A stretch of 64,000 nucleotides of DNA from Gemmatimonadales bacterium (GTDB taxonomy: Bacteria > Gemmatimonadota > Gemmatimonadetes > Gemmatimonadales > GWC2-71-9), in the NCBI GenBank assembly GCA_037189525.1, contig JBBCJC010000005.1:704001-768000 (forward strand), given 5' to 3'. The translations under genes were made by a program, and so were the position numbers. Of this stretch, positions 14,796-39,819 are shown one piece after another. The first letter of the stretch is position 1; every line of letters begins with the position of its first letter. Under the pieces are notes generated by a model that was not told the DNA's origin, searched no databases, and saw only the letters and a list, made by a program, of their open reading frames with translations.

Positions 14796-16448
14796 TCAAG
14801 GGCGAGCGCCGCGGGTAAATACGACGTTCCGAACCCGCCCGCCAGACACCCGAAATCCGGTCACTCGACCACCGGTCTTGAGAAACCGCATGGTGCCGGC
14901 GCGCTGCGCCTGGAAGGCGTCGGGATAGAGCGGCCGCATCGGGAAGGTGCCGTGTTTGAAGGTCTTGACGACCAGGCCGCTGTCGCCCTGTTCGATCCGA
15001 TAACTCACCCGAAGCTCATCGCTCCAGTAGTCACCGACGTACTGGGCCAGCGCCGCGCGATTCGGCTCGAAGGGCGGCATTTTGACCAGCGAGTCGGCCA
15101 GTTTGCCACCGTCCAGAACACGGATTGCGACAGGCGCGCCGCCGGACGGTCCGACCAGAACCCCTTCGGAACCGCCCATCCGGATCCGGGAATCGTCGAT
15201 CGCATCCACCGGAAAACCGGGGCCGAACGCACCACCCACGAGCTTGCCGTCGTTCACCCGGTAAATGGTGGCCAGGTCGGAGCGCGAGGAGCGATAGACA
15301 CCGGCAATCGCCTGGGCGCGCGCGCCGGTCAACGCGTTCGGCTTGCGATCCGGAACCGGGGTGAGCTTATCGCCCAGGACGATGTCCGCTACCCCGCGCG
15401 AGTAGTTACCCGGCGTGGCCGCCGCGAAGTTGCACGCCACCGCGACATCCAACCCGTGCTCCGGGAACCGCACCACATCGGCCCGGTAACCGGCATCGGC
15501 GCCACCATGCCCGAAGACCGGCGTGCCACGATAGGTCCCCACCGAAATACCATAGCCGTAGTTGATCGAACGGCCGTCGTTCAGCACACCCGACGTCTCA
15601 GCTTCACGCAGCAGCGGCTTACCGAACACGGTTCCGGTCTCGAAGTTGTGCTGCCACTTGAGCAGATCCTCGACCGTGGTAAAGAGGCTGGTAGCCCCGT
15701 GCGTATCGAACTGGGGAATGCTCGACTTCCACACTCCGTTGACCTCCTGGTACGCCGCAGTGCGCCCGGGAACGACGAAGGTATGGTCATCGTGGACGTG
15801 GGTCCGGGTCATGCCGAGCGGCTTGAAGATGCGCTCGTCGGAAAGCTCACGAAGCGACTTGCCCGAGATCCGCTGCGCAATCACGGCGAGCAGCGTGTAG
15901 CCGCCGTTGCTGTAGCTGTACTCGTCGCCCGGGTTGAAGTTGAGCGCCTTCTGACGGACCAGGATGTCCATCACGTCGTCGTTGGTAAAGAGATCGGAGG
16001 GATAGCGCCATCCGGCGTAGCCCAACAATTCCCAGTGATCGCGCACCCCGGCGGTGTGATACATCAGCTGGCGCACCGTGTAGCGCGGATGCTCAGCCGG
16101 CAGCTCCGGAATGTGCTTCCGGACGTCGTCGTCGAGCGAGAGCTTCCCCTCCTGCGCCAGCCCAGCTACCGCGAGCGCGGCAAACTGCTTCGAGACCGAC
16201 GCCACGTGGAAGATCGATTGTGGCGTAATCGGGGTGCCCTGCTGCAGGTCGGACATCCCGTAGCCGCGGAGGTAGACCGGCTTGCCGGCCAGGCCGACAC
16301 CGACCGCACACCCCGGCCGGTTGGTGCCGTCGAAACGGGCAAAGACGCTGTCGATCTGACGGATCTGCGTGGGCGTGAGCGATTGCGCCACCAGCGGGGC
16401 CGCGCCCAGCACCGCCGGAAGAAGGAACGACACGAGTCGTCTGGTCAT
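14796..16448 (-). CDS. Secreted serine hydrolase (class C beta-lactamase/D-aminopeptidase family)
   Basis: Signal peptide; ASVSKQF (SxxK), YSN, HGG. Confidence 0.9.
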   Translation of the reverse strand: MTRRLVSFLLPAVLGAAPLVAQSLTPTQIRQIDSVFARFDGTNRPGCAVGVGLAGKPVYLRGYGMSDLQQGTPITPQSIFHVASVSKQFAALAVAGLAQEGKLSLDDDVRKHIPELPAEHPRYTVRQLMYHTAGVRDHWELLGYAGWRYPSDLFTNDDVMDILVRQKALNFNPGDEYSYSNGGYTLLAVIAQRISGKSLRELSDERIFKPLGMTRTHVHDDHTFVVPGRTAAYQEVNGVWKSSIPQFDTHGATSLFTTVEDLLKWQHNFETGTVFGKPLLREAETSGVLNDGRSINYGYGISVGTYRGTPVFGHGGADAGYRADVVRFPEHGLDVAVACNFAAATPGNYSRGVADIVLGDKLTPVPDRKPNALTGARAQAIAGVYRSSRSDLATIYRVNDGKLVGGAFGPGFPVDAIDDSRIRMGGSEGVLVGPSGGAPVAIRVLDGGKLADSLVKMPPFEPNRAALAQYVGDYWSDELRVSYRIEQGDSGLVVKTFKHGTFPMRPLYPDAFQAQRAGTMRFLKTGGRVTGFRVSGGRVRNVVFTRGARP

Positions 16449-19671: not shown

Positions 19672-19734
19672 GGTAGCGCTGGCACCACTCGTTCCATTCG
19701 GGCATCTTTGGAGACTCTTCTACCGGGATGCCCG

Positions 19735-21354
19735 ATGTCTCACCTCACCAAGGTCGCCGTGCTCGCGGCCGTGGCCACCGGGGCGGCAGCGCCCCTCGCT
19801 GCTCAGACCGCAGCCCTGCTCGATTCGACCTTTCGGGAATGGAACAGCACCACCGGACCGGGGTGCACCGTCGGCGTCGATTTCAACGGGCAGCGCACCA
19901 CCCGCGCGTATGGTATGGCCAATCTCGAGTACGGGATTGCGCTCCGGCCCAATTCCATCGTCGAGTCCGGATCGGTGGCCAAACAGTTCGCCACTGCGGC
20001 GGCCGCCCTGCTCCATATTCGCGGCCGGCTGAACCTCGACGACGATATCCGTAAGTACCTGCCGGAGCTCAAGGACTTTGGCACACCTATCACGATCCGG
20101 CAGCTCTTCAGCCACACCAGCGGGCTGCGCGACCAGTGGGCGCTGCTAGGCCTTCAGGGCATCGGACCGGGTCAGGCGGTCCACACCCTGCCCTGGATCC
20201 TCGATCTGGCATCACACCAGGAGGATCTCAACTTCACCCCTGGCAGCCATCACCTCTACAGCAACATGGGGTACGTCCTGGCCGCCATCATCATGGAGCG
20301 GGTCCTGGGCGAACCCTTTGCCCGGTTTTCCGAGCGGGAGTTCTTCGTGCCGCTCGGAATGACGCGGACCCAGTGGCGTGACGACTACCGAAGGATCGTT
20401 ACAGATCGGGCCACGGCCTACGCGCGCGAAGGGAACGCCTGGGTGCAGGACATGCCGTTCACCATGGTGCACGGCAATGGCGGCCTCCTCTCCACGGTGG
20501 ACGACATGCTTCGCTGGAACGAAGCGCTGACCAAGGGCACCATCCCCGGTGGCGCCGAGTTGGTTCGGCTGCTCGAAACGCCCCCGACCCTGACCGACGG
20601 TACCACGATTCGCTACGCGCTCGGCTTGAGCGTCGACGATTTCCGGGGCACCCGAATGGTGAGCCATGGCGGCGCCACCGCCGGCTATCGTACCTATCTG
20701 GCCCGCTGGCCGGATCGTCAGCTGTCGATTGCAGTCCTGTGTAATGCCGCTCAAGCCAATCCGACGGCATACACCACGCAGATCGCCAGCCGGCTCCTGA
20801 ACGTCCCTGCCGGGCGCGAGGCCCCGTCGGCGCCGGTTGCCATCAGCCGCGCCGAGTTGGAACCATTGGTGGGAGTCTATCGGGATTCGACCAATGATCA
20901 GATCGTCCGTGTGACGATGTCGGGCGATCAGCTGACGGCTGCTCCTGGCGGCCTGCTGGTGCATCTGGGCGATCGGCGCTTCTGGAACGCCAACGCGGGC
21001 GAGTTGCGGTTCATTGCCTCGGGGTCGACCTGGAAGCTCGAACGGCCGCAAGACGGGTGGGGCCACTTCTCGCGTGACGAGGCGCCGCCTACGGTCCGCT
21101 CCAGCGACTATGTGGGTCGGTACCGGAGCCCGGAGCTCGAGGTCACGTATGAGGTCGTCTCGGATTCAGCCGGGGGACTCACGCTCAAGGTCCGACGTGC
21201 GGGCAACCTACCGCTCCGTCCCGCCTACACGGATGGCTTTGCGGCGGGTGGAGGACGAACCATTCGTTTCACCCGGGATCGCCGCGGTACAGTCACCGGC
21301 TTCCGCGTATTTGCCGGCCGAGCACTCGGCGTTCAATTCGCCATCATCCAATAA
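19735..21354 (+). CDS. Secreted serine hydrolase (class C beta-lactamase family)
   Basis: Signal peptide from ATG 19735; GSVAKQF, YSN, SHGG; paralogous to 14796-16448. Confidence 0.9.
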   Translation: MSHLTKVAVLAAVATGAAAPLAAQTAALLDSTFREWNSTTGPGCTVGVDFNGQRTTRAYGMANLEYGIALRPNSIVESGSVAKQFATAAAALLHIRGRLNLDDDIRKYLPELKDFGTPITIRQLFSHTSGLRDQWALLGLQGIGPGQAVHTLPWILDLASHQEDLNFTPGSHHLYSNMGYVLAAIIMERVLGEPFARFSEREFFVPLGMTRTQWRDDYRRIVTDRATAYAREGNAWVQDMPFTMVHGNGGLLSTVDDMLRWNEALTKGTIPGGAELVRLLETPPTLTDGTTIRYALGLSVDDFRGTRMVSHGGATAGYRTYLARWPDRQLSIAVLCNAAQANPTAYTTQIASRLLNVPAGREAPSAPVAISRAELEPLVGVYRDSTNDQIVRVTMSGDQLTAAPGGLLVHLGDRRFWNANAGELRFIASGSTWKLERPQDGWGHFSRDEAPPTVRSSDYVGRYRSPELEVTYEVVSDSAGGLTLKVRRAGNLPLRPAYTDGFAAGGGRTIRFTRDRRGTVTGFRVFAGRALGVQFAIIQ

Positions 21355-21363
21355 AGAAACGTT

Positions 21364-21389
21364 AGGCCCCTCGGGAAAGCGAGGGGCCT
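21364..21389. terminator. Hairpin between convergent genes at the left island edge
   Basis: Perfect 10-bp stem AGGCCCCTCG-ggaaag-CGAGGGGCCT; no strong U-tail. Confidence 0.6.
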
Positions 21390-21427
21390 CATGAAAGGTT
21401 AGCTCCAGCAGCGGGAAAGGGACTCTG

Positions 21428-22111
21428 TCACCTGAGCAGACGCTCTACATGAGTGCCAAGAGGGTTCTCTAAAATGCGCCGAGCGAGTATCCCGGACATC
21501 CTAGCGGCCGCGAAACTTACACCACTATAGACCTGCTGACCTCCGCCCAAGGATCTAGCCAACAATTGGTGTCCTTTACACGACAACTCAATATCGTCTT
21601 CCGGTGAATAGACGAAATTTTCCGTTTGGCTTGGGCCTGCAAGACGGACCCCAAACACGTTGTCAAAATACGCGGGATAACACTCATTACCACCTCCCCC
21701 AGCGGCAGCGATCAATATTACCCCGGCACTCCTTGCCATTGAACACGCCCGGTACAAGTGACCAATAGCCACTTGCGACGTCGACCCAAGACTGAGATTA
21801 ATTATGTCTGCTCCATACCGTACCGCATAGTCGATTGCCTCAGCAACCACGACCATCGATGTTCTGAGTTTGCGGCCGAACACCTTAAGTGGAACAATCG
21901 TTGTATGGGGACACTCGCGGAGGATGATGTCAATACAGGCAGTTCCATGTCCATGGAAATCAGGCGCACCCAGTTGAACACGAGCCAGCCGTCTCCCATA
22001 CTCATCAACAAACGACGCACCAGGCAAGACACCGGGCTCACTGACGTAAGGATCCCAGCCGCTATCAACCACTGCGATCAACACTTTCCCCTGAGCGCCT
22101 GGGAAAGTCAT
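21428..22111 (-). CDS. Minimal S8 (subtilisin-like) peptidase, candidate LanP leader protease
   Basis: Triad motifs IAVVDSG, HGTAC, SGVSFAA, plus IINLSLG. No signal peptide or propeptide; ATG immediately follows the HlyD stop. Confidence 0.85.
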   Translation of the reverse strand: MTFPGAQGKVLIAVVDSGWDPYVSEPGVLPGASFVDEYGRRLARVQLGAPDFHGHGTACIDIILRECPHTTIVPLKVFGRKLRTSMVVVAEAIDYAVRYGADIINLSLGSTSQVAIGHLYRACSMARSAGVILIAAAGGGGNECYPAYFDNVFGVRLAGPSQTENFVYSPEDDIELSCKGHQLLARSLGGGQQVYSGVSFAAARMSGILARRILENPLGTHVERLLR

Positions 22112-23308
22112 TCAACCAGCCTTGTCCGCCGCGTCCAAGGACAGGGCTGGCCGAGCCACATACCTCCGGACGCGGCGTGCGATAATTGCTCCTATACGCC
22201 CTGACTCCGTAACAACATTCGCACGAACGGACAAGCCGTTCCGAAGCCAATCTAACGAATCTGCTACGCGGTCTACATCGACCTCAACACGAAACACCCC
22301 AGCCTCCGCGACCCGGTATTGAGCAGTTGTACGATCCGCTGGCTGAAATCCAACGTAGCGAACGTGCCCGTCCAACCTTAGATTCGCCCCTCCCCGATTA
22401 GGAAGAACATCGATACGAACACGAGCACCGAGTGGAATCTCCGCGATATCCCGCTCCTTGAAGAACGCGGTTACCGACCATTTCCCACTCTCGCCAATCT
22501 GCGCAATAGCTTCACCTTCAGCAACAACTCGGCCTACCGCGTGCCTAAGTCCGTCGGAAAGAATAACTCCGTCAACTGGCGCAACAACCAGACTCCTGCG
22601 GAGCGAGGACTCGACTAGACGTCTACGCGCACGAGCCGCATCAACCGCAGACAATCCGCGAGATATCCGAAGGCTATCTGCCCTTAACGCAACCAGCGAT
22701 GCCCTAGCTGCCGAAATAGCGGCCAATGCAGCACGTAAATCTGCAACTGCAATATCCAACGCAACATGCTGGCCCTCCGAATACGTTGCCAGAACCGAGT
22801 CGACATCAGCAACGACGTTATGGTCCGTTAGGACAGACCTTAACCGAGCACGATGGGCAACGGCTATTGCCTCCGCACGAGCGACTTCGAATTCCTGACG
22901 ACTGATCTCTTGGGGGATCGACAGTCGCACGCCATCTAGCGACAATCCCGCATCGCGCAAGTCTGCATCAGCAAGAGAGCCTTCGAGCAACAGCATTTCA
23001 CTATCTAGTGAGAACAATGAATCCCCGGCTTCCACTACCTCGCCGCCATCGGCATACACCGCCACGATACGCCCGCTTCTCTGAGCCCGAACATCAACCA
23101 CCTGATGGTGCTCGATAAAACCTGATCCTGCTGACACTAAGTCGATCGGCAACAAAAAAAGGCACGCCGCAATCGCCAAAAACGAAATCACAATCCAACG
23201 GCGAATTGCCCGTACGATTCGCTCCACCATACGGACGACAGGCCCATTGAGGGTGATTTCCTGACCTACCCCCCTCTCGCCATCTCGGATCAATCGGCCT
23301 GAAGACAT
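22112..23308 (-). CDS. HlyD family secretion adaptor (membrane fusion protein)
   Basis: N-terminal TM, lipoyl half-motifs (VRAQRSGRIVAVYADGGEVVEAGD; VVAPVDGVI...VAEGE) around an Ala-rich coiled coil, C-terminal LRNGLSVRA. Confidence 0.85.
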   Translation of the reverse strand: MSSGRLIRDGERGVGQEITLNGPVVRMVERIVRAIRRWIVISFLAIAACLFLLPIDLVSAGSGFIEHHQVVDVRAQRSGRIVAVYADGGEVVEAGDSLFSLDSEMLLLEGSLADADLRDAGLSLDGVRLSIPQEISRQEFEVARAEAIAVAHRARLRSVLTDHNVVADVDSVLATYSEGQHVALDIAVADLRAALAAISAARASLVALRADSLRISRGLSAVDAARARRRLVESSLRRSLVVAPVDGVILSDGLRHAVGRVVAEGEAIAQIGESGKWSVTAFFKERDIAEIPLGARVRIDVLPNRGGANLRLDGHVRYVGFQPADRTTAQYRVAEAGVFRVEVDVDRVADSLDWLRNGLSVRANVVTESGRIGAIIARRVRRYVARPALSLDAADKAG

Positions 23309-23310
23309 AA

Positions 23311-25023
23311 CTATGATCCGTTCTCGACCAGGTTCGCGGCAATCCTGCGACGCGGGTCGCGGGTCTCTGACGTCCCTTCAAACGTGTATACTCTGTCAGC
23401 AAACTGAGCTATTGGAATCCGATGGGTAACCATGACAACGGTGGTTCCACTCAACCAACTTCTCATTCGCGACAACACCTCAGCCTCTGTCTTTGTGTCA
23501 AGCTGCGACGTCGGCTCATCGAGAAGCACAAGAGGCGCTCGTCGCGCCAAGGTCCGGGCTAACGCAATACGCTGCCTTTCTCCACCAGACAATGCCACAC
23601 CTCCCTCTCCGACGCGCGTATTCAAACCGTTTGGAAGGCGTTGACAGAGGTCATGAAGCCCACAGACTTCAACAACGTCAGAAACAACATTTCTCGAGAT
23701 TGGAAAGGGCGCGAAAGTGATGTTGTCCACAATCGACCCCCGAATGAGCCCATACTCCTGCCACATAACAGCGATTGAATGGCGCCAATCTGTCAGATCC
23801 ATATCGTTAAGCGACATTCCATCCACATAGACGCCCCCTGACCCCGCCTCAGCAAACCTTGCAGCAAGCCGAATGAGCGTCGTCTTGCCTACTCCAGTCG
23901 TACCCATGACGACGGAAACAGTACCGGATGGAAACGCCAAATCAGGGAATACCAATACCGACTCCGGTGACTCCAATACCACTTCAACACCCGAAAAAGA
24001 TAGACTCGGAGCCGTTGAGCGCGCCGGACGACCTCGCTCAACTCGTCGAACGTCTTCAGGCACGCTGTCGATGTATTCAAATACCCGAGATGCAGCAACC
24101 GCCGTATGCTGAAGGTTCTGAACCAATCCGACCCACTGTCCGACAGGACCTACAAGAAGCCCGAGATATGCGGAGAACGACAGAAACTCCCCCAACGAGA
24201 TTACATCAGCAAGAATCATGTTCCATGCTACCCACGACAAGTACAGCATTGAGACAGCCCGAATAAGGCCATGAGCAAAGCCAAACCCGGCACCAAGTGC
24301 AGACGCACTTACGGAAGTCGATGCAGTAGCAGTATGTAACGCAATCGATTCCTTCACCAATGCCGCCTCAACACCGAGCGCCTTCGTAGTAGCTACTTGG
24401 GCAAGAACGCTTACCTGATGAGATGTCAACTCGGCCGAGGCTTCGATCGCTCGTCGATGCGCCGCGCGAAGTACCCGTGCAGACGCAATCGTCAAAGCAA
24501 CAGTGGCGACAACAGACACGAACGCGATTGACGCGAGGCGCCCGTCAATTGCGAAGAGCAATGGCGGAATAATGAGGAGAAACGGCGTTGTTCCAACGAT
24601 TGTATCTAACACGCCAACCAGGGAGCCGAGGGAAGCACGAACATCCCCGAACCGACTCGCAATCTGCCCTACTTGATTACCATCGTGAAATCGAATCGGC
24701 AGATCATGAACGTGAGCGAGGAGCCGTGCCCCAATCTCCGCGTTCAATCGCGCCATCAGCACGGCACTGAGATAAGATCGAACAAACGTCACTAGGGATG
24801 CAAACATTGTGACAACAAATGACGCCGCAAGCACAACAGCAAGCAGCCCAGTACTCCCAGCTGGGTACACGCTATCCACTAGAAGTTTTGTGAAGTAGGG
24901 TGCCGGCAGCGCCAAAAGCGATATCGATACGGTCAGACCAGCAACCCGTGCCATCGCACGCCAATGGCTCTTGGCCAACCGCGCAAGCCTAAACAATAGC
25001 CCGAGCGGAGAACTAGCATCCAT
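23311..25023 (-). CDS. ABC exporter (TMD+NBD), LanT-like, without C39 peptidase domain
   Basis: TM domain begins within about 25 aa of the start. Walker A GTTGVGKTT, signature LSGGERQR, Walker B LVLLDEPT, H-loop VTHR. Confidence 0.92.
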   Translation of the reverse strand: MDASSPLGLLFRLARLAKSHWRAMARVAGLTVSISLLALPAPYFTKLLVDSVYPAGSTGLLAVVLAASFVVTMFASLVTFVRSYLSAVLMARLNAEIGARLLAHVHDLPIRFHDGNQVGQIASRFGDVRASLGSLVGVLDTIVGTTPFLLIIPPLLFAIDGRLASIAFVSVVATVALTIASARVLRAAHRRAIEASAELTSHQVSVLAQVATTKALGVEAALVKESIALHTATASTSVSASALGAGFGFAHGLIRAVSMLYLSWVAWNMILADVISLGEFLSFSAYLGLLVGPVGQWVGLVQNLQHTAVAASRVFEYIDSVPEDVRRVERGRPARSTAPSLSFSGVEVVLESPESVLVFPDLAFPSGTVSVVMGTTGVGKTTLIRLAARFAEAGSGGVYVDGMSLNDMDLTDWRHSIAVMWQEYGLIRGSIVDNITFAPFPISRNVVSDVVEVCGLHDLCQRLPNGLNTRVGEGGVALSGGERQRIALARTLARRAPLVLLDEPTSQLDTKTEAEVLSRMRSWLSGTTVVMVTHRIPIAQFADRVYTFEGTSETRDPRRRIAANLVENGS

Positions 25024-25144
25024 GATGTATCATATGTGTACGTAGCGTATGCCAAGGCGATCGGCTAGGAAGAGTATCCCCAGGGGGGTGTAAGCCAGAC
25101 TCGATCCACAGCGGCAGGAGGTTAGTCACTAACCGCGGCATCGG

Positions 25145-26005
25145 CTAGGCATCCCGAAGACGAACGTCGGCTCCCACCTCGGACAACATAAAAGCACAGA
25201 AAGCCTCATCTGCAACTGTCAGCCCAATCCGATTGCTGGTCATATGAAGCAGCGACGCGGCCGTCCAATCACACACTTTCTCAGCTTGTACCCCTCCCAG
25301 TAGTTCTGTGAGCCCAAGCCGGTATTGCTCGCAGGAAGTTCTATAAGAATCGAGCGCGTCCGACATTGACTGATTCGCAATCAGGCAGTCTGTAGTCGCG
25401 CCAACGATCTCCTCTATCCGACCGCGCTGCTCTGGAAAGCTAGCTTCAAAACGACTGCGAAGTTGTGCAGCCCGCTCTGAAAGCGCACGCCCCCCGAGAC
25501 AACCCTCAAAGTATCGTTGAAAGAAAGCCTTACGCCCCTTCTGCAGTGCGTAAGCAATTACCAGCATTGCAAGCAACCCCTGACCAATCACGTTTGCTCT
25601 GGTTCGCTCGGGCCGTTCCAAGTATATGCAAGCGAACCGAGTCGATGCCACAAAATGCCGCTCAGCAAACTCCAGTGCCGCTACCCCCCCGTAACGCACC
25701 ACTTCAGGCTCATAAGCAACCCACGAAGGCTGCGGTGCAGCCGCGTTCGGTGCCACACTTGCGCGAACTCTGCCGACCTGCAACAATAGCTGCTCGATAT
25801 CCCGTCGGCTAGTTTCCTGTTCGACCATACAAAAACGATATCGAACATGGGGGCCAGTTTCATCGAAATATCTAACAAAAAACCAGTGCGCCGTCGCCAT
25901 GGTCGACAAGGCAAGTGCATTAGCTACGGCCGCGACTTGACCATCCACATCGGTCCCATATATGTCCCGTGAACAGGGCAAATGTATACTCAGCCATTGT
26001 TGCAT
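25145..26005 (-). CDS. Standalone LanB glutamate-elimination domain (Lant_dehydr_C / thiopeptide-type biosynthesis domain)
   Basis: WLSIHL, WFFVRY...GPHVRYRF, YEPEVVRYGG...AERHF, LHMTSNRIG...E. ATG 26005 lies 1 nt after the LanB-N stop (286 aa). Confidence 0.9.
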   Translation of the reverse strand: MQQWLSIHLPCSRDIYGTDVDGQVAAVANALALSTMATAHWFFVRYFDETGPHVRYRFCMVEQETSRRDIEQLLLQVGRVRASVAPNAAAPQPSWVAYEPEVVRYGGVAALEFAERHFVASTRFACIYLERPERTRANVIGQGLLAMLVIAYALQKGRKAFFQRYFEGCLGGRALSERAAQLRSRFEASFPEQRGRIEEIVGATTDCLIANQSMSDALDSYRTSCEQYRLGLTELLGGVQAEKVCDWTAASLLHMTSNRIGLTVADEAFCAFMLSEVGADVRLRDA

Positions 26006-26006
26006 C

Positions 26007-28775
26007 TTACCCCAACGTAGTTCGGACCGGCAGCGGAGACCCCGGAATAGTAAGGTGCACCACCAACTCAGTCGCCAAATGCCCTTCCGCACACTCAGCG
26101 GACTCCTCGCACCTTGGCCAACGCTCTTCAACGTGCAACACACTAATCCCTGCGGATGCAATCATCCGACAGAACAGACGGACAAACAGGGGATTCACAA
26201 AGTCAATGTACTGGGGTTTCCAGCGCTCGGCCCATGCTGCGGCCTGTCGACGTGCTTCATAATCGTCACCGCGACCAGGGGCTTCAGCCTCTTCTTTTGG
26301 CGTGGTAGCTTCGCCCTTGTCCACCTTCGGCATCGGCCTAATCCTAACAAAGCAGTCAAGCGGCAGACTTGAGTCCACTAGCCACCGATGAAATCGCTCA
26401 AAGAACTCCGCATTACCTTCGCCCGATCTCTGAGCTGGAACGATCGACGAGGAAAACATCCACACCTGTCTCGATAGAACAAGGGCACCATCAAACGTAA
26501 AACGCGGCCGATGCACGATGCCGTCAGGCACCGGAGCAGCGACCGAGACTTCGTTGGGGATTGGAACTGAAACCGTGGACGCTGGTACGAACCGCGCCAA
26601 CAGCTGGTAGAGCGGCGGCTGCCGCTGAATATTCAGAAACCCAAGATCCACCGGAACAACGCGACGACCAGTTGCCTTGTGGCGGAGTATTAAAGAGTTC
26701 TGATCTACTGGATGCCGCCACACCTCGAGGTCATGACACTGAACGCTTCCCTCCGAACACGAGGTCTCTGTCGAGGGATGGAGAATTTCGTAAGGCAAAA
26801 CCTTCTCCCGCAGATTGCCATTAAAGAAAGCCCCTCCCGATATCTCAGCATAGATGGTATCATCGTCATCGTCTTCGATAAAAGCATCACCGACGAGACG
26901 ACGACGGATCTTTTCCTCAAAAAGGTATAGAAAACGTGAGTAGTACTTTCCGAACCCGACAACAAGTCGTCCATCTTGTACGATCGCCTGAGCCGGAAGT
27001 CCTTCTGGCTGAACAAGCTGAACGAATGCTCCGAGAGACACCCTGTCTTGCGGTCTCTCCATAACTGCCCCGCCTTGGTTCAGCGCGGCGACTAACTCGT
27101 TCGTCGTTATGTCAGCCGCTTCGCACCCGTTCGCGCCGACCCACTTATCTACAAATAGCTTCCGGAGGTTATCCCTCGCAGCAGCTGTCGCCATCGTATA
27201 ATCACGCATCGAAGTAGTATGTGCATCGGGACGCTGTCGCTGAGGCCCCGATGCCTTATCACCACGAAGCCTCTCCAATCGTGGCTTCATTACCTCACGC
27301 GCATAGTCCTCGTAGTAAGTGAGCAAGGGTACAGGAGTAGCTCCTTGGTAGTAGAAATCATAGAACGACCTCATACTCGCCTGCTCATCACGTGGCCATC
27401 CTGTTGTAAGTAGCAGAGTAGCGAAACGCCTGAGTGTCCCCTGCCATGAGCGCTCGGGATCCTGATCTACCACGCGCGCACTGGCAGCGGCTGTAGCATC
27501 CTCGAAGAAAAGCTCCGGGAGCCCCTGGAGAGGTGCTTTTAGCGCTGCAAGGACGTCCGCCACTAGGCTGCGAACTCTACCGGCTAAAAGCTGACGGTCG
27601 GTGCCATTCGCCACCTCCATCGCCCGGTGTAGCTCCATCTGACTCCGAATAAACGTAGCAACAATACCTCCAGCCGGAGTTCCACTTGCCTCCGCCCAAC
27701 GAAGAGTTCGCACATCCCAATCAGACGACGTAGTGCGCGCAATCGGACGGAACCGAATCAACCCAACTCCGATCAGCTTTCTTACGTAGGCATCTGCCTC
27801 TTCGACTGACGCATCGATGGATTTACAATCTGATATATCGCGGACCACTTGATCGTAGGTCCTCTCAGCTGTTGCCGACAGCACTCTTAACACCTCGTCA
27901 AGAGCAGCATTCGGTGCCACTCGTTGGAAGACTTCGCGTCCGCCAATATCAGCCAAGAAGACTGGGCCGTTACCGGACATCTGAAGGGTTGGATTGAGCT
28001 CAACCGTAAGCCCACCAAAGATGGTGGGCGTTGTAGTCATCATTGACCACAGCACACCCAGCAAAGCCGCATTCGGACGAACCTGTGACTGCAATTCATG
28101 TGGCGTTCCGCACAATCGTAGGCGCATATCGCCGTCATCAGCAGCAGATAGAACTGATCCTGGTACTACGACACACAAGCGACCAAAGGGAGTCGCCTTC
28201 ATTCCCATGCGTGAGACATACTTCAGAAGCCCTTGCTCCGTCTTCTCATCACGGCGTTTTGGCCTGTCAGGCTCGTAACGAAGGATAGCTTCCATTAAAG
28301 ACTGACTTGTCAAGGCAACAGTCGCAAGCAGGTTCTTGTCCCGAGCAAGAACGCTGAGCTTAGCTCGGACTTCCTTCATAGAATCTGGAAATGACGACAC
28401 CATCTGCGCGTAAAGTCGGTCACGGTCTTTCAGTCGACCCAGATAGGTGTTGACCAGATCCCTTGTATCACTTGGCAACTCCCCAAGGATGAGCTGCAGG
28501 CCACCATCGGGTGGCTGAATACGCTTAAATAGCTGACGGCGTACGTTAATCATATTCCGACGAGCCGACGCGATCGAACTAGCCCCGACGGCTTTGTGGA
28601 TACCGTCTGAAACCGCCTGAGCAGTACCCTTCAACTGTAGCTCGATCGCGCGAATGCCTTCCAAGGTACTGACGAGCGACGAGGCTCGTAGTCGCTCAAC
28701 AGCCTCAATCGTCAGCGCACCGGCCCGGCATATGTAGGTAGAGGAGATCATATCGAAATTCTCAAACATAGACAT
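26007..28775 (-). CDS. lanB: Lanthipeptide dehydratase, glutamylation domain (split LanB, N-terminal part)
   Basis: 922 aa; KYVSRMGMKATPFG, GKYYSRFL, FNGNLR, PRFTFDGALVLSRQVW, KPQYIDF...VEERWP...ELVV. Confidence 0.9.
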   Translation of the reverse strand: MSMFENFDMISSTYICRAGALTIEAVERLRASSLVSTLEGIRAIELQLKGTAQAVSDGIHKAVGASSIASARRNMINVRRQLFKRIQPPDGGLQLILGELPSDTRDLVNTYLGRLKDRDRLYAQMVSSFPDSMKEVRAKLSVLARDKNLLATVALTSQSLMEAILRYEPDRPKRRDEKTEQGLLKYVSRMGMKATPFGRLCVVVPGSVLSAADDGDMRLRLCGTPHELQSQVRPNAALLGVLWSMMTTTPTIFGGLTVELNPTLQMSGNGPVFLADIGGREVFQRVAPNAALDEVLRVLSATAERTYDQVVRDISDCKSIDASVEEADAYVRKLIGVGLIRFRPIARTTSSDWDVRTLRWAEASGTPAGGIVATFIRSQMELHRAMEVANGTDRQLLAGRVRSLVADVLAALKAPLQGLPELFFEDATAAASARVVDQDPERSWQGTLRRFATLLLTTGWPRDEQASMRSFYDFYYQGATPVPLLTYYEDYAREVMKPRLERLRGDKASGPQRQRPDAHTTSMRDYTMATAAARDNLRKLFVDKWVGANGCEAADITTNELVAALNQGGAVMERPQDRVSLGAFVQLVQPEGLPAQAIVQDGRLVVGFGKYYSRFLYLFEEKIRRRLVGDAFIEDDDDDTIYAEISGGAFFNGNLREKVLPYEILHPSTETSCSEGSVQCHDLEVWRHPVDQNSLILRHKATGRRVVPVDLGFLNIQRQPPLYQLLARFVPASTVSVPIPNEVSVAAPVPDGIVHRPRFTFDGALVLSRQVWMFSSSIVPAQRSGEGNAEFFERFHRWLVDSSLPLDCFVRIRPMPKVDKGEATTPKEEAEAPGRGDDYEARRQAAAWAERWKPQYIDFVNPLFVRLFCRMIASAGISVLHVEERWPRCEESAECAEGHLATELVVHLTIPGSPLPVRTTLG

Positions 28776-29270
28776 TTCACGAAGTCGACCGAGCCTTGTA
28801 ACGAGCGTAGCTGTAGGAGCACTGAACTCGCCTAGTCTACCTGAACGTGCCCGATCTACAACGAATCGACAGACTCATGGGAATCAATGCCATCACCTGA
28901 AGCACCATTCGCGGTTTCACCTTGATGGACGGTTCAAGTTACTGGGCCCAATACAGCACATACAGAGCGGCCTGCAATATCTCTATGATTTGCATCACCG
29001 CCCACCTCACGCCACCGGCTGCATAAAACCACCCTTCGATCCCACCAGCGGTGGGCGTCACCACTCCTTTACCGGTGGCAACCTTGGATCGCAATGGCTT
29101 TGCCGAATTTTAGGTAGCTCGCCTCGCGGAAACATTAGATCAAGAACGATGTCGCAGTCCATTGCCGACAAGTATCGCGAGAGGTCGCTACGACCATAAG
29201 AACACCACGCATCAAGACCTGCTGAAGCCAGGCGAGGCGCAGCAGACAATCCGCCTATGAGGCTAAGGAA

Positions 29271-29612
29271 CTAGCACGGGGATATGTCGCTACAACCGCA
29301 ACTACATTGCGTAAACTCGCCTGCACCGACGGTGGTTTGGCACCCACAAGCCGTAGTACACGATATTTCCGTACAAAAGTGCCCTTGACTACACCGCCAA
29401 TCCATACTCTCGGTGCCCGTCCCAGTACACGGATTGCACGTATTCATTCCACAGCTGTTCGTTCCGCAGGTGTCGCCACATGTACCGCAGGTCTGAAGAC
29501 AGGTGCTGCCGACGTGCGACGCACCGCTGTAACCCTCTACCGTTAAATCAGCAGGCGACGTATCGAATGACTCGACTTCGAGGTCATCCAGGTTCAGCTT
29601 GAGCTTTGCCAT
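29271..29612 (-). CDS. lanA: Lanthipeptide precursor (LanA) with pinensin-type leader and long Cys/Thr/Ser-rich core
   Basis: Leader MAKLKLNLDDLEVESFDT...TVEG, then 86 aa with 16 Cys, 15 Thr and 10 Ser. GAGGG RBS (29620-29624) 7 nt before the ATG; located between lanB and lanC. Confidence 0.9.
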   Translation of the reverse strand: MAKLKLNLDDLEVESFDTSPADLTVEGYSGASHVGSTCLQTCGTCGDTCGTNSCGMNTCNPCTGTGTESMDWRCSQGHFCTEISCTTACGCQTTVGAGEFTQCSCGCSDISPC

Positions 29613-29910
29613 TGCTCTACCCTCAAGTTATAAGATTATTAGACTGTGTATTGCTGACCTCGCCTGACAATCCAGTGAACCCGACGACCCTTTCGTACCG
29701 CCAGTCGCCATCATGTGTATGTTTAGCGTACCGAAGCGTACCAATTAGGAGAGGACGCTTACACGGCTAGCGCCAACCAAGACACCGAACACAGTACCCC
29801 CTAATCGGACACCGCTGAGCCTACTGCGATCCGTCGTACGTACTTGCGTACCTTAAGAAGTAATCTTAGAATTGCGAAATCGACTAACCTGAGAATGGAA
29901 CTTACCCGCC

Positions 29911-31881
29911 ATGTTAGTGCTGTCAAGTAGTGAGGCAACCTGGGCATTGCCAGCCGCGCTAGACATTGCGCACCGTATTGGTTCGCAGGCGATTTGGGAC
30001 TCTACCTCAAAATCATGTACGTGGAATATTCGTTCGGTTGATTGGAAGCGGCCGTCATCAAGAGTCAGCGTAGTCTCGCCCGCAGGCATCGACTTATACC
30101 AGGGCGTATCTGGAATAGTCGTATTCCTCGCCGCTGCCTACCCCTACGCCCCTTCTGCACATATGCTCCGAGTAATTCGTGGTGCATGCAGATTTCTCTC
30201 GACAGGGGCCCAATCTCTTCCACCGGGCGCGTGCAGCTTTTTCGTTGGGAGAGTAGGAGTTGCTTGGGCACTCCTGTCGGCTGGTAGGTCACTCGGCGAT
30301 GAGAGGTGGAACGCGCCTGCGAAGAAAATTCTAGAGTCATTGGCCGGCCACGAGAAAAGTGACACAGCACTTGATGTTGTTGGGGGCGCTGCCGGCGCTA
30401 TTCCGCCACTGATTCGCATGGGACAAGATCTCCGAAGCGACCGCCTACAGGATACAGCATTACGCTATGCCGACCGGTTAATATCCACAGCAAGACGGGG
30501 ACCTTCTGGATGGTCAATCCCTTCAACGAGAATCTCGCACGTTCGTGACCTTACTGGACTTGCCCACGGCGCCGCCGGAATGACACGTGCTCTCCTTGAA
30601 GCCTATCTCCTGTCAGGACGCACCAAGTACCTTTACGGATCCGAGGAGAGCGCTGCGTTCGAGAATAGCTACTATAGTGACCACGAACAGAATTGGTTCG
30701 ATTTCCGCCATGACTCTCTCGGAGAGCTCGAAGCCGAAGGGCGCCTCAGCCAGCTCCGAACGAATCCTTCTCTTCGGAGTGCCATTCAGCCATACAGAGG
30801 GCGTTTCATGGCCGCATGGTGTCACGGAGCGCCTGGAATCTTGATGGTTCGCCTTCGTACGGCACAAGTTCAGAATACGTCAACGGCTATTGCTGCCGCT
30901 TGGAGGGCAGTCCCTGCAACTCTCAGATCCGTTGAACGGATTACCTCGGGATTCAGTCTCTGTCACGGGGTTTGTGGAAATGCTGACGCCCTAATTTTTT
31001 CGGCCGAAGTCCTTTCAGCGCCTGAAGTCCGTCAAAAGGCAATGAACGCACTCCTCCACGGCGTCAAGGAGTACGTTGGTACCGGACGGTCATGGCCCTG
31101 CGGCACGGTTGACGGATTGGTTGACCCGAGCCTAATGCTAGGTGAGGCGGGAATAGGGCTTTCTCTGCTACGAGCCGTGGACCGTAACCTCGAATCGCCG
31201 CTTTTGCCATCAGGGGTTAATGTCGTCAAACCCCATTCATCCATGGCAGTCGATGACGACCTATTAGCCGAAGATCGGAGCCTTTTCTTTAGTCAAAGCC
31301 TGATGCAATCACCTGACCTGATTGCAACGGCCAATCGGTTGCGAGACCCGGCGTCGGGCATTAGCGCTGCCCGCTCGTTACTCTTGGCAGTACACGAAAG
31401 TGTACCGCCGACTGATGCACATGTAGCTTACGTTCGGTCGACAGAAATTGCGCGGTATGAAGTTGCACGAGACCATAGCCGTGTTGCTATTTTTCTCAGC
31501 TCGGTTGATCAACCTCCCGATATCGATTGGCTCTCGGCTCGTATCGTTTTCGCAGAAACGACTAAAGTTATTCCCTCCCCTGAGTCTGATAGTCATCAAG
31601 CCCCACCAGAGGATGGAACGCTAATCTTTGCCGACCTAAACCAGATATATGTACGCCCGATCGGTCGCTTTCCCCTGCTTGTACTTCAGGCTATTGAGGG
31701 ACACGATGGACTAGCAGATATCTGTTCATTCGTGGCGTCAAATCTTCCGAACGGGGATCCGAGCGACCCACGCCTTGTACAGAAAGTCATAGATCAGTTG
31801 ATGTCTTTTCATAGGGCGGCGATTGTTTCGTGCGCTCCACTTATGACTCGACTTGATCGCAGCAACGCGCAGTTCCCTTGA
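29911..31881 (+). CDS. lanC: LanC-like lanthionine cyclase with C-terminal extension
   Basis: GxxG loops LYQGVSG, FFVGRVG, DVVGGAAG, GLAHGAAG, SLMLGEAG; zinc ligands AWCHGAPG and SLCHGVCG; about 223 extra residues after PLLP. Confidence 0.9.
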   Translation: MLVLSSSEATWALPAALDIAHRIGSQAIWDSTSKSCTWNIRSVDWKRPSSRVSVVSPAGIDLYQGVSGIVVFLAAAYPYAPSAHMLRVIRGACRFLSTGAQSLPPGACSFFVGRVGVAWALLSAGRSLGDERWNAPAKKILESLAGHEKSDTALDVVGGAAGAIPPLIRMGQDLRSDRLQDTALRYADRLISTARRGPSGWSIPSTRISHVRDLTGLAHGAAGMTRALLEAYLLSGRTKYLYGSEESAAFENSYYSDHEQNWFDFRHDSLGELEAEGRLSQLRTNPSLRSAIQPYRGRFMAAWCHGAPGILMVRLRTAQVQNTSTAIAAAWRAVPATLRSVERITSGFSLCHGVCGNADALIFSAEVLSAPEVRQKAMNALLHGVKEYVGTGRSWPCGTVDGLVDPSLMLGEAGIGLSLLRAVDRNLESPLLPSGVNVVKPHSSMAVDDDLLAEDRSLFFSQSLMQSPDLIATANRLRDPASGISAARSLLLAVHESVPPTDAHVAYVRSTEIARYEVARDHSRVAIFLSSVDQPPDIDWLSARIVFAETTKVIPSPESDSHQAPPEDGTLIFADLNQIYVRPIGRFPLLVLQAIEGHDGLADICSFVASNLPNGDPSDPRLVQKVIDQLMSFHRAAIVSCAPLMTRLDRSNAQFP

Positions 31882-32364
31882 GGAATGACGCAGCCTGATC
31901 CACGTTTGCGGTGTTCCGTCACCTTAAGGGGCTAAGATTATCCAATGACGTCGGCCACAGTCGATCCGTGTTCCGACGCGGGCGCGGAAGGATGCCTAGC
32001 CTACGATCGCCTGGAAACGCTTTATCACTCCCCGTTTCTCACAATGCGGTCCGGCCGCAACACATCAGTCATCACGATTGCGTGCCTACCCCCTGGTGAA
32101 AACTCGGACTGACTCCCCCAGTACCAATCTAGGAGCTGCCTCTCCCGTTCAGATCAATCCCATGCCAGGAAAATCGCCGTGATCGCGGTATGCTAGTTCA
32201 ATCCGACAAAGCGCCTCATCCAGGCCTCTCGGCAAACAAGACTAAACCATCCTCTACCTTCAAGGCAAACTACCTCTAGCAAAAATGACCCGCCACCCTA
32301 CGGAGCTAATAGAACAGAGAATGCTGCCTGTTGAAACCTGAATCCCTGGGTGGTGCTCCCAATA

Positions 32365-32405
32365 ATGAAGGGTGGTGCAGTAGAACTTACTGCACCACCC
32401 TTCAT
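32365..32405 (-). terminator. Intrinsic terminator of the susC-susD operon
   Basis: Perfect 18-bp stem ATGAAGGGTGGTGCAGTA-gaact-TACTGCACCACCCTTCAT, 17 nt after the susD stop, followed by TATT on the minus strand. Confidence 0.8.
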
Positions 32406-32422
32406 CTCAGCTAACCGTCGTA

Positions 32423-33772
32423 CTAGAAGTTCGGATTGTTGTTCCGCTCGACGTCCGGCAGCGGCAAGCAACGGACGGAGCCGTATACGCCACCCTTCGG
32501 ACGATTGGCCGTGCCACCGGTGACCCGCTCCTGCGGAATCTGGAACGACACACCAGCCGCCGGATCGAAAGGCACATTGAACCGGATGTAGTCGTATCCA
32601 CGCTGACTCTCGAGGAACAGCTCACGCGACCGCTCCTCGATGATCTGATTCATGATGGCCGTTGCATCGCTGCTGGCGAAGGCCGGCAGGCTGACTGCCG
32701 AATGCAGCTCGTTGATATACGACACGGCGGCATCCGGGTTCACCAGATGATAGTCGGCCTCGGCCATGATCAGACGGGCTTCCCCGTACCTCGCGAGAGG
32801 AATAGCCGCCGCCTGCGAGTTGTACTTCCGCGCAATGTACAGGTTCGGAGTCAGGTTGTCCTGGCCGGTCGGCCCGACAGCGACGACGACCCGAGGATCG
32901 GGAACGCCGTTAAACGTCATCGCCTGATACCGCGGCGCAACCCCGATCGTCCGGCCTTCCTGGTTCCGCGTAAACACATGATTGCGGGAGTAGGACGCGT
33001 TGGTCGCGTACGGCATGTTATAGACGAAACCGGCCGGAATGGCGGCCGCATCCGCCCGGGCTTCGGTGAGCTTCGCATTCACGACCGCCTGCCCCGGCAA
33101 CTTCGCCAGATTGAGACGGGTACGGGCACGACCGACGCGAGCCGCATTGGCGATCGCGGTATTGTTCGCGGCGCCGGCATGCGTGATGGCCTCGGTGAAC
33201 TTTCCTTCCGCCACCGCAAATACCTGCGCGGGCGTCATCTCCGGCCCGCCATCCAGCGCCATCGAGCAGAAACCTTCGCCCAACAGCAGCGTGGAGTACC
33301 CGGCAAGGAGGGCGGCACGAGCCATCAATGCCGTCCGGCCCGACACCTGGGCATCGGAATACTGAGCCAGGTTCGTCAGCGCCAAGTTGGCCGTGTAACG
33401 GGCAGTCTGCATCGGCGCGTAGACGCCAAACTGCTGGCCTCCGTCGCACGCTGCGGTGGCGTAGTTACCGCCCGCCTGCAACATCGAGCGACGATCCCAG
33501 TCCCAACCTGCCGCAGCGAGCTGGGTGTCTTCGAGTTCGTCGGTGATCAGCCCGAATCCCGTGATGTACGCCTGGAAGGCACAGCCAAATGCCGCCTGCG
33601 CTCCATCCACCATCAATGACGCCGCCGCGGGACCTTCAAGCGTGCTTTCGAGGATACGCGACGGCGCGGCCTGGTCGAGCAGGTCGCTACAACCAGCGGC
33701 CCCCAGGAGGAGGGCCACGGGCGCAACCGCCCTGGCCCCCCGATACATCAGTTTAGAAACCATAGTCTGCAT
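32423..33772 (-). CDS. RagB/SusD family nutrient-uptake lipoprotein
   Basis: Lipobox AAGC, EARLIMAEA, IIEERSRELFLESQR, CLPLPDVE...NPN; follows a SusC gene. Confidence 0.88.
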   Translation of the reverse strand: MQTMVSKLMYRGARAVAPVALLLGAAGCSDLLDQAAPSRILESTLEGPAAASLMVDGAQAAFGCAFQAYITGFGLITDELEDTQLAAAGWDWDRRSMLQAGGNYATAACDGGQQFGVYAPMQTARYTANLALTNLAQYSDAQVSGRTALMARAALLAGYSTLLLGEGFCSMALDGGPEMTPAQVFAVAEGKFTEAITHAGAANNTAIANAARVGRARTRLNLAKLPGQAVVNAKLTEARADAAAIPAGFVYNMPYATNASYSRNHVFTRNQEGRTIGVAPRYQAMTFNGVPDPRVVVAVGPTGQDNLTPNLYIARKYNSQAAAIPLARYGEARLIMAEADYHLVNPDAAVSYINELHSAVSLPAFASSDATAIMNQIIEERSRELFLESQRGYDYIRFNVPFDPAAGVSFQIPQERVTGGTANRPKGGVYGSVRCLPLPDVERNNNPNF

Positions 33773-37822: not shown

Positions 37823-39391
37823 TCAATCCCGCCGGAAGGTCCCCATCCCGTCAATCGTTACCGACGCCACGGCGCCGTCCCGGCCAATCGCAAAGGTGGC
37901 AAACTGTCCGCCCGCCCAGGTCCCCGACAGCCGAAGCCGGAAGACGTCGTAATGCCAGGGCTGGAGCAATCCATCGCCACCCTCCCGGATCCTGAATTCG
38001 AGTCCCCCAGGCCCGGCAACGACACTGACCTCACCCATGAGGTCGTTCCGGTATCGTCCCGCATAAGCGGTCATCGGCCGACTCGGCGGCGCTCCCTCGA
38101 CCCGCTGGGCCTGGAGCGCGCGCTCCGCCTCACGGCTCCGGGCCCGGTCGAGAGCGTTGAGCGCGAGCAGTTCACGACTCCAGTCCCGCACCGGCGCGCC
38201 CAGATGGAGGTCGATGATCCGATACGCGAGCGCCTGGGGCAGCCAGGCATACCCCATGTCACCGTTCGAGAGCACCGCAATCCCAAGGTTCTCTTCCGGT
38301 ACGAAGCCGACATAGGCCAGGAACCCGATGATCCCGCCGGTGTGCCAGACCACCTTCCGGCTCCGGTAGTCGTTGAGCCGCCAGCCCAGACCATAGGACC
38401 AGAAATGGGTGCTGGGACTGACCGAGTCGACCAGTTGAATCCAGCCCGCGGGATACAGCACCGATTGCGGCGTCAGCATGGCATCGAAGGTCGCGGAGCG
38501 CAGCAACCGCTTCCCGTCATGGACGCCACCGGACGTCAGAAAGCGAAGCCACTGCGCCATGTCGGCAGCATTCGAGATGACCGAGCCCGCCGAAACCGCG
38601 TTGTCATAGCTCTGCCAGGCAATGGGACGGACCGAGTCGGCGACCATCTGATGGGGCAACGCCGCATCATGCCCGTTCCGGACATCGTCCAGTGTGACCG
38701 GACGATCCGGCAGCGCACAGTAGAAGCACTTGGCAAAGCGGGTCGAGTCGAAAAACCGGCTGATATCCGTAGTCGTCTGCCCCATTCCGAGCGGGCTCAA
38801 GATCCGTTCAGCCAGGAGACGCTCCCACGGCTTGCCGGCCGCCGCCGCAACCGCCTCACCCGCGGCCGAATACATCATGTTGCTGTACTCGTAGCGGCTC
38901 CGAAACGGCACCGCCGGCGTGAGATAGCGCAGCTGGCGCAGCACCTTCTCGCGGGTCCAGGTCACCACGCCGTTGTAAGCACCCAGGATCCCGGTCCGGT
39001 GCGAAAAGGCATCCCGCAGGGTGACGTTCTGAGTCAGATACGGATCGGCCAACTCGAACCACGGCAGATGGCGGCGAATCGGATCATCCCAACCGATCAC
39101 GCCATCATCCACCAGCATGGCCGCCAGCGCAGACGAGAACGCCTTACTGGTCGACCCGATCTCGAACAGCGTCTGGGCAGTGACCGGATCCGGGCGGCCC
39201 AGCTGTTTGACACCGTACCCCTTGGCGAGAATGACCGAGTCGTTCCGAACGATCGCAATTGCCACGCCGGGGACGCGCCACTCCGCCAGCGCCTTGGCTA
39301 CGTAGTCGTCAAACCCGGCGAGAGCACGCTCCTGCGCGGCCAACGGAGCCGTGACTCCGAACAGCGCCGCTATCAACCACATCGCTTTCAT
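37823..39391 (-). CDS. Secreted serine hydrolase with C-terminal DUF3471-like domain
   Basis: GSTSKAF, YSN, HTGG, YAGRY...G...WHYDVF tail; start overlaps the cytochrome c stop. Confidence 0.9.
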   Translation of the reverse strand: MKAMWLIAALFGVTAPLAAQERALAGFDDYVAKALAEWRVPGVAIAIVRNDSVILAKGYGVKQLGRPDPVTAQTLFEIGSTSKAFSSALAAMLVDDGVIGWDDPIRRHLPWFELADPYLTQNVTLRDAFSHRTGILGAYNGVVTWTREKVLRQLRYLTPAVPFRSRYEYSNMMYSAAGEAVAAAAGKPWERLLAERILSPLGMGQTTTDISRFFDSTRFAKCFYCALPDRPVTLDDVRNGHDAALPHQMVADSVRPIAWQSYDNAVSAGSVISNAADMAQWLRFLTSGGVHDGKRLLRSATFDAMLTPQSVLYPAGWIQLVDSVSPSTHFWSYGLGWRLNDYRSRKVVWHTGGIIGFLAYVGFVPEENLGIAVLSNGDMGYAWLPQALAYRIIDLHLGAPVRDWSRELLALNALDRARSREAERALQAQRVEGAPPSRPMTAYAGRYRNDLMGEVSVVAGPGGLEFRIREGGDGLLQPWHYDVFRLRLSGTWAGGQFATFAIGRDGAVASVTIDGMGTFRRD

Positions 39392-39819
39392 CGTCTCCGC
39401 CCCTCTTGCGGCGGAAGCGCGACGGACCGGGAGAGGGTCCAAACGTACGCAGCCACCGCCCGCAGTTCGTCGTCGCCCAGCCCGGTCCCCGCCCGCGGCA
39501 GCATCGGGATACCGGTCTTGGCTTCCGACTCGGAAATACCGCGAATCAACTGCACTGTCATCGAGTCGACCGAACCGTCCGGATGGAGCACGACCTGATC
39601 CGTCAGATCGGGACCGGTCCCGCCCTTGCCGTCCATACCGTGGCAGGCCATGCAGAGTCCGGTACTTTCATAGAGCTCTTTGCCCTGCGCCACCATGGCA
39701 GCCGTGACACCCTTGGGCAACGGCACCGGCGCAGCTTGCGCCTCCAGATTCACTCGCCATCCCGCGCAAGCCAGGACGACGAGCAGCCCACCACCCCAGC
39801 AATCGAATCGTCGTCTCAT
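39388..39819 (-). CDS. Monoheme c-type cytochrome
   Basis: Signal-like N-terminus, CMACHG heme motif, GPDLTD, distal Met in PMLPR, AVAAYV. Confidence 0.88.
   Translation of the reverse strand: MRRRFDCWGGGLLVVLACAGWRVNLEAQAAPVPLPKGVTAAMVAQGKELYESTGLCMACHGMDGKGGTGPDLTDQVVLHPDGSVDSMTVQLIRGISESEAKTGIPMLPRAGTGLGDDELRAVAAYVWTLSRSVALPPQEGRRR

Follow-up and report, generated by a model that had tools for sequence, protein, structure and literature searches.

Seven genes at positions 21,428 to 31,881 of a stretch of Gemmatimonadales DNA raise the question of whether they form a complete lanthipeptide pathway, and how such a pathway would relate to that of pinensin. The window analysed here is the whole stretch of 64,000 nucleotides (contig JBBCJC010000005.1, positions 704,001 to 768,000), in which the original prediction, made from the letters and their translations, had seen an apparently complete class I lanthipeptide cluster with a split LanB in a probable Gemmatimonadota host. 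The best explanation of our results is a horizontally acquired class I pathway of this kind, related to pinensin and part of a Gemmatimonadota/Acidobacteriota clade that is sister to the pinensin type, a reading to which we assign a probability of about 80%.

Pathway enzymes and the inserted island

Class I lanthipeptides arise by Glu-tRNA-dependent glutamylation, elimination and zinc-dependent thioether formation. All seven open reading frames (ORFs) lie where they had been predicted and are intact, encoding the precursor LanA, both halves of LanB, LanC, an ATP-binding cassette (ABC) exporter, a HlyD-family adaptor and an S8 protease (Table 1). Each enzyme scored above its curated Pfam cut-off, including the four models suggested as a check (Lant_dehydr_N, Lant_dehydr_C, LANC_like and Peptidase_S8). 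With the LanB, eliminase and LanC domains and their catalytic motifs present, and with the leader and Ser/Thr/Cys-rich core of class I precursors in LanA, the class I assignment was borne out.

The LanB glutamylation domain (LanB-N) keeps the motif YVSRMGMKATPFG, YxxRxxxKxTPF and the residues invariant across the 13 LanBs compared; its sole solved relative is TbtB (6EC7, E 7e-18), and it carries a segment of its own, at about residues 255-345, that resembles a RiPP recognition element (RRE). The eliminase contains HVRYR, EVVRYGG and HMTSNR with the catalytic residues R55/R57, R104 and H254, and aligns to MibB, LLHMT.NR included. By sequence it is of the canonical His/Arg (anti) type, which predicts (Z)-dehydrobutyrine (Dhb) and not the SapT route. 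The split predicted for LanB is a trait of the family, as related LanB-N proteins end in TE(L/F)VV with a standalone eliminase adjoining. LanC (29911-31881, plus strand, 656 aa) has GLAHG (H219), WCHG (C304) and LCHG/CHG (C351, H352), so that its zinc ligands are intact as first reported; both WCHG and LCHG are kept in the window and in 17 of the 18 loci compared. The AlphaFold2 model of LanC had a predicted local distance difference test score (pLDDT) of 92.6.

Table 1. Features of the island in window coordinates
Feature	Position	Strand	Details
Terminator-like hairpin (intrinsic)	21364..21389	-	stem of 10 pairs (8 G-C) and a T-rich tail; lies between the S8 gene and the serine hydrolase of the host, where it would end the minus-strand operon
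QhpE-like minimal S8 protease, 227 aa	21428..22111	-	PF00082 Peptidase_S8, 47.3 bits; triad D16/H55/S199
HlyD-family periplasmic adaptor, 398 aa	22112..23308	-	PF13437 (HlyD_3, 64.6 bits), PF16576
ABC exporter, 570 aa, lacking a C39 peptidase domain	23311..25023	-	ABC_membrane 81.4 (from residue 35), ABC_tran 80.7; no C39 match
Standalone glutamate elimination domain, 286 aa	25145..26005	-	PF14028 Lant_dehydr_C, 112.6 bits
LanB glutamylation domain, TbtB-like, 922 aa	26007..28775	-	PF04738 Lant_dehydr_N, 100.1 bits (cut-off 28)
LanA precursor, 113 aa	29271..29612	-	pinensin-like leader LxLxLDDLxVESF; sole genome-wide match of the leader hidden Markov model (HMM)
LanC cyclase domain, residues 1-437	29911..31221	+	PF05147 LANC_like, 169.2 bits; LanC fold
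LanC tail, residues 438-656	31222..31881	+	helical domain and RRE, NGO1945/TglI-like

The gene set occupies ~21356..32357 with a GC content of 54.3%, as compared with 65.5% for the genome, and GC at third codon positions is 0.50-0.59 in its genes and 0.76-0.81 in the flanking genes. In the congener G005 both flanks (80-85% identical) are only 130 nt apart and form an empty site; the cluster is thus an insertion of ~11 kb. Three junctions are very short: one base separates the LanB stop from the eliminase ATG, two bases lie between the ABC and HlyD genes, and none between HlyD and S8. No long terminal repeats, integrase or transposase were found in the island. Each end of the insertion has the 7-mer CCAATAA (21348-21354 and 32359-32365), which occurs a single time at the G005 empty site and may be a target duplication or due to chance. 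A perfect 18-bp hairpin follows susD (32365-32405), and a similar one is found at the empty site.

The host RecA, matched in nine of ten genomes, is closest to that of a Gemmatimonadales metagenome-assembled genome (MAG; 87% identity, 241 aa), followed by Gemmatimonadaceae (79%), Longimicrobium (74%) and a second Gemmatimonadales genome (71%), and is at most 69% identical to those of five genomes of other phyla. These identities place the host in the Gemmatimonadales, in agreement with the phylum predicted. Positions 20500-33000 are matched without any difference by a public short-read contig, which may itself be the origin of the window DNA.

Relatives of the cluster and comparison with pinensin

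Eighty loci were kept from GTDB genomes, 12 of them with a tailed LanC, and eight more were fetched. All seven genes recur in four other Gemmatimonadota loci, L007, L106, L108 and L109, whose precursors likewise have acidic cores rich in Cys; the contig end truncates the ABC gene of L109. L010 has six of the genes, and L107 combines LanA and both LanB halves with a LanC-tail-S8 fusion of 906 aa (L107:9116-11836, minus strand). Tail-bearing loci from Gemmatimonadota and Acidobacteriota number 13, with L009, L014, L026, L110 and L111 cut by contig ends. Judged from these sequences, the architecture is that of a recurring family and not a single find. A small S8 gene was present in eight of these 13 loci (one fused to LanC) and in none of the seven from Bacteroidota/Omnitrophota, where the leaders are mostly of the GG type. 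Among the ABC proteins tested, C39 was found in 3/3 from Bacteroidota/Omnitrophota loci and in 0/3 from S8 loci. The two groups, S8 with a peptidase-less ABC and C39 without S8, read as a swap of the leader-removal module. The genome of L107 contains a second, unfused cluster ~25 kb away (L108).

A quick maximum-likelihood tree (IQ-TREE) groups the window LanC with those of Gemmatimonadota and Thermoanaerobaculaceae (SH-aLRT 98), and the tailed LanCs of Bacteroidota are separate (SH-aLRT 100). Of 8000 candidates scored, even the best LanC relatives do not exceed 36% identity over the full length, so that no near-identical cluster exists among them. LanC was matched in three of 60 relatives, in none at full length, and in nine of 400 genomes of the phylum (three candidates scored per genome), five of them past the first 260 profile positions.

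A total of 68 PinC-like LanCs were reached through a Chitinophagaceae locus (L119) that has a split LanB, a C39 transporter and a precursor of the pinensin family (39.7 bits). One is named Chitinophaga pinensis and one comes from strain YR627, which has the pinensin core (PMC9248904). P0284 (612 aa) is taken as PinC by name, by homology to the pinensin-family locus and by its YR627 homologue, not by accession; the C. pinensis genome encodes further LanCs (PMC9680876). Pinensin leaders were sought around a MAG labelled Chitinophaga pinensis and were found in 1/61 and 1/301 genomes; the PinC-like proteins were then obtained by protein search. The tail families of the window and PinC-like LanCs match with an hhalign probability of 98.9% (E 2e-17), and the LanC extension is thus shared between the two. 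PinC-like proteins have WAHG and LCSG instead of the zinc ligands (WCHG/LCHG in 0/68). Despite this, P0284 and its 67 relatives keep the catalytic His and the tail.

With pinensin (MIBiG BGC0001392; pinA, pinB1/B2, pinC, pinT) the cluster thus shares the split LanB, a related leader and a homologous LanC tail, as well as the LanM-like LanC branch (PMC7268733). The two LanCs are 26% identical and differ in their zinc ligands, intact in the window. The core is 85 aa with 16 Cys, as compared with 22 aa in pinensin (PMC10112250). The window has no GG leader end and no import genes, and S8 replaces the C39 transporter; the C39-ABC and GG leader of the pinensin type are present in L119, L062 and L120. 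Of the combined differences from pinensin put forward in the original prediction, the very long core and the minimal S8 protease, QhpE-like and in place of a C39 peptidase, therefore hold. The other two do not, as the PinC-like family has a homologous LanC tail and HlyD-type export also occurs in Bacteroidota clusters of the clade (L062, L120). By sequence, what sets the cluster apart from pinensin is its zinc ligands, QhpE-like protease, non-GG leader and long core.

Split-LanB class I clusters are already known (PMC7268733, PMC9011353), and lanthipeptide clusters of Longimicrobium terrae have been noted, not studied (PMC7291104). The pinensin biosynthetic enzymes are described as unconfirmed (PMC9680876). 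No characterised close cluster was found in the literature, which supports the earlier view that the product is uncharacterised. The literature searched, mainly non-subscription, gave no QhpE-like lanthipeptide protease and no characterised Gemmatimonadota lanthipeptide. It likewise gave no RRE- or DUF2063-fused LanC, including in the available parts of PMC12710340, PMC7470986 and PMC12452194, although supplementary tables of RRE surveys, mostly outside the search, may list such fusions.

The LanC tail, the precursor and the proposed route

Nothing in Pfam matched the tail of the window protein. Among 69 relatives NGO1945_C was found in 15 and PqqD in ten, and DUF2063 gave no match. The tail profile matches PqqD 3G2B (E 0.01), and in the ESM Atlas the leads (NGO1945_C, HvfC and PqqD clusters) all stayed under 0.9. 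As Foldseek of the whole LanC returned LanC folds only, the tail was folded alone. In its AlphaFold2 model (pLDDT 83.9) three strands and three helices come after a helical domain. VIA-align superimposed it on NGO1945 (3DEE) with Z 10.8 (root-mean-square deviation (rmsd) 4.8, 183 aligned residues) and on the 268-residue TglHI chain 8HCI_C with Z 10.8 (rmsd 5.3, 182 aligned). Its agreement with the RRE of TbiB1 was closer over a shorter length (Z 10.5, rmsd 2.0, 84 aligned), with lasso B1 at Z 9.6 and PqqD at Z 8.8. An equal score, Z 10.9, was obtained with an unrelated methyltransferase, but only along the winged part of 90 residues. Foldseek placed the same two structures on top, 3DEE at E 3.2e-3, which is not below 1e-3. 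The tail thus has the order of NGO1945 and TglI (8HI7/8HCI), a helical DUF2063-like domain and then an RRE, matched over about 183 residues. These are DUF2063 plus RRE partners, PME types 1 and 2, of multinuclear non-heme iron-dependent oxidative (MNIO) enzymes (PMC12452194). Unlike them, the tail is fused to the C terminus of LanC, and no MNIO (DUF692) gene was found in the island or in the 74 neighbouring ORFs that were scanned in related loci.

With the tail profile, 776 clusters (50% identity) were matched. The 103 full-length proteins among the best 150 are LanCs without exception, 96 of them with WCHG and two CHG motifs; of the 47 shorter ones, 27 retain part of LanC and 20 have the look of fragments. 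A predicted complex of tail and leader scored 0.57 against 0.01 for the best control, with runs agreeing in at least 65% of contacts and a partner pLDDT of at least 50. A score of 0.60 or less is seen in just 18 of the 157 solved complexes, as well as in both of the two passing mismatches, and the score here may stem from likeness to solved RRE-leader complexes. The prediction lends weak support to leader binding. Since the tail folds like NGO1945 and TglI, LanC probably grips the leader.

The LanA leader aligns clearly with pinensin-family leaders and scores 21.3 bits against NF038180 (cut-off 24), covering only profile positions 1-13 of 28. The core of ~85 aa contains 16 Cys, 10 Ser and 15 Thr and has a net charge of -5. 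A Ser or Thr directly precedes eight of the 16 Cys (shuffle p 0.05, borderline), and in seven of eight related cores such [ST]C pairs are above shuffles (p <0.05). Long cores rich in Cys are usual in the family; they have 36-97 residues and 6-16 Cys, the window core having the most Cys of those seen, and are net negative in 9/9 tested. The window core has no Lys, one Arg, two His and neither lipid II motif of PMC7268733, which makes a membrane-active lantibiotic unlikely; the product would be an acidic, rigid mini-protein that neither binds lipid II nor acts on membranes. As the island has no importer, it would be released and not recaptured, and we tentatively suggest, by analogy with the zinc-binding pinensins, that its most likely role is that of a secreted competitive agent binding metal ions. 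A search of 5.8 billion proteins gave no precursor homologue, with a word filter insensitive for such peptides; the relatives came from the leader HMM. A second short precursor type (45-51 aa, with a CS..D.CP.RLC-like end) lies between LanC and ABC genes in Longimicrobium-type clusters (L009:8192-8329, L106:9036-9191 and L014:about 1865-2009), and none was found in the window.

The protease has the motifs DSG, HGT and GVSFAA and is too short to include a signal or pro sequence. In this, and in its size of ~220 aa, it resembles its best NCBIfam match, QhpE (NF049966, 129.6 bits, cut-off 165; relatives 117.8 and 120.7), which is the S8 protease in the maturation of quinohemoprotein amine dehydrogenase. 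It differs from QhpE in its lanthipeptide context, with no qhp genes nearby. QhpE reportedly removes a leader at near single turnover. It acts on a thioether-crosslinked peptide (PMC8172795), and cytoplasmic S8 LanP proteases such as ElxP exist (PMC10885120); we propose that the window protease is a cytoplasmic leader peptidase. The exporter shows Walker A, LSGGE, LLDEP and VTH motifs. The genome gave 13 TolC-like matches, and the TIGR01844 cut-off was exceeded by none of them.

These components suggest a route in five steps. LanA would be bound through its LxLxLDDLxVESF leader, with the RRE of the LanC tail as one site and that of LanB probably as another. LanB-N would glutamylate Ser/Thr from Glu-tRNA, and the separate eliminase would form dehydroalanine and (Z)-Dhb. 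Addition of Cys thiols by zinc-dependent LanC would then yield many lanthionine or methyllanthionine rings, at most 16, which probably overlap because Cys often directly follows Thr or Ser. Leader removal by the QhpE-like protease would take place in the cytoplasm, with a cut close to TVEG|Y, and ABC, HlyD and a chromosomal TolC would export the product. To our knowledge, known lanthipeptides have far fewer than 16 rings.

Two other readings of the pathway as a whole have to be weighed. The recent insertion without a regulator, and the identity of only 27-41% between its proteins and their nearest relatives, would suit a silent or decaying passenger, but seven full-length frames with all catalytic motifs, the tight coupling with gaps of 0-2 nt at three junctions and the high-confidence LanC model make this improbable. 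A thiopeptide-like pathway, or one with a syn-eliminase as in SapT, was considered because both use split LanBs. LanB-N is closest to TbtB of thiomuracin among solved structures, shares with it the standalone glutamylation enzyme and the YxxRxxxKTxPF motif, and matches the 'thiopeptide-type' model TIGR03891. It is paired, however, with LanC and not with azole and pyridine enzymes: YcaO, azoline oxidase and pyridine synthase are not among the island genes (TbtD model 13.5 against 325 bits; the rest of the genome was not searched). SapT (SptBa/SptBb/SptC) likewise combines a split LanB with LanC, but SptBb is a syn-eliminase without the His and Arg (PMC9011353) that the window eliminase keeps, and pathways of either kind are very improbable here.

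Within a class I lanthipeptide pathway, the roles of tail and core may be read in more than one way. In the textbook picture of class I the RRE is carried by LanB. Leader recognition might have moved from the dehydratase to the cyclase, LanC with its RRE module of the MNIO-partner type being a hub that holds the leader, recruits the TbtB-like split LanB and the QhpE-like protease and lets mini-protein-sized cores be stapled, here with up to 16 rings; we regard this as rather unlikely. The module would also explain why the zinc-less PinC is kept in the pinensin cluster. Less likely than not, by our estimate, is the ordinary class I arrangement in which the RRE of LanB binds the leader and the tail is vestigial or a scaffold docking LanC to LanB or S8. 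The conserved LanB RRE with its invariant-looking EVFQR/EAFQR strand, the LanC-S8 fusion of L107, the low identity of the tail to its closest aligned relatives (9-21%) and the role of NGO1945/TglI-type proteins as enzyme partners as well as peptide binders (PMC12452194) would fit this; the retention of the RRE half of the tail in 776 clusters and across phyla, even in PinC without a zinc site, and the weak prediction of leader binding argue the other way. A vestigial LanB RRE, by analogy with TbtB, is not supported by the column conservation of LanB. As for the core, only part of it might be cyclised, the other Cys staying as thiols or disulfides of a metal site in a lanthionine-braced, metallothionein-like peptide. 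Eight of the 16 Cys have no Ser/Thr directly before them, the acidic core with its two His contains QCSCGC and ACGC motifs and C-terminal CxCxC/CGC stretches, and pinensins bind Zn(II) with a dissociation constant in the low nanomolar range (PMC13532221). The 25 Ser/Thr outnumber the 16 Cys, however, and the island has no thiol oxidoreductase or importer, the adjoining SusC/SusD pair being host backbone, so that we consider this doubtful.

Several observations weigh against the reading of a pinensin-related pathway as set out above. No precursor was detected in L010 and L110, and L008 and L012 have a tailed LanC without a TbtB-like LanB of the window type. The window LanC is a long branch (1.29) within its clade. 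The protease is without the subtilisin oxyanion Asn (AAAGGGG as against AAAGNSG) in addition to falling below the QhpE cut-off. The LanB RRE is conserved like the rest of LanB (mean column agreement 0.47-0.48), so that the RRE of LanC need not be the main leader site, and vestigial RREs exist (PMC7470986, PMC11962472). The metal-binding role is argued only from analogy and composition.

Within the class I lanthipeptides, the clusters define a branch that is widespread (776 clusters with the LanC tail), uncharacterised and at home in soil phyla that are poorly cultured. A LanC-borne RRE would depart from the LanB-borne picture, and the common partner module would link lanthipeptide and MNIO pathways and provide a handle on pinensin biosynthesis. 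A cyclase closing 10-16 rings in an 85-residue substrate would be a useful engineering tool.

Surroundings of the island and minor loci

Terminator-like sites were as common in shuffled sequence as in the stretch (10 against 10.7 in shuffles), which puts the hairpin count at chance level, and a promoter scan of the stretch was likewise at chance (4 sites, 6.5 expected); no RNA holder was listed for it. Two non-coding stretches of ~500 nt lie in the island (28776-29270 and 31882-32357); the leader HMM gave no second precursor. Three serine hydrolases of the beta-lactamase/D-aminopeptidase fold (14796-16448, 19708-21354 and 37823-39442) occur near a SusC/SusD pair; they belong to the host backbone and possibly serve peptide uptake.

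Tailed LanCs were also seen in other settings, in L012 (9606-13542) with two Cys-rich precursors and no LanB nearby, and in L008 (9599-11971) beside integrases and a different LanB. About 33 loci (L011, L013, L015, L017, L020-L025 and others) have a standalone LanC of 405-500 aa that belongs to the LanM-like branch, and no TbtB-like LanB was detected in their vicinity. Both tRNA-Glu genes and the best TolC-like match of the host genome lie at G000:C5:700083-702568, immediately to the left of the window and ~23-25 kb from the cluster, which is probably a coincidence.

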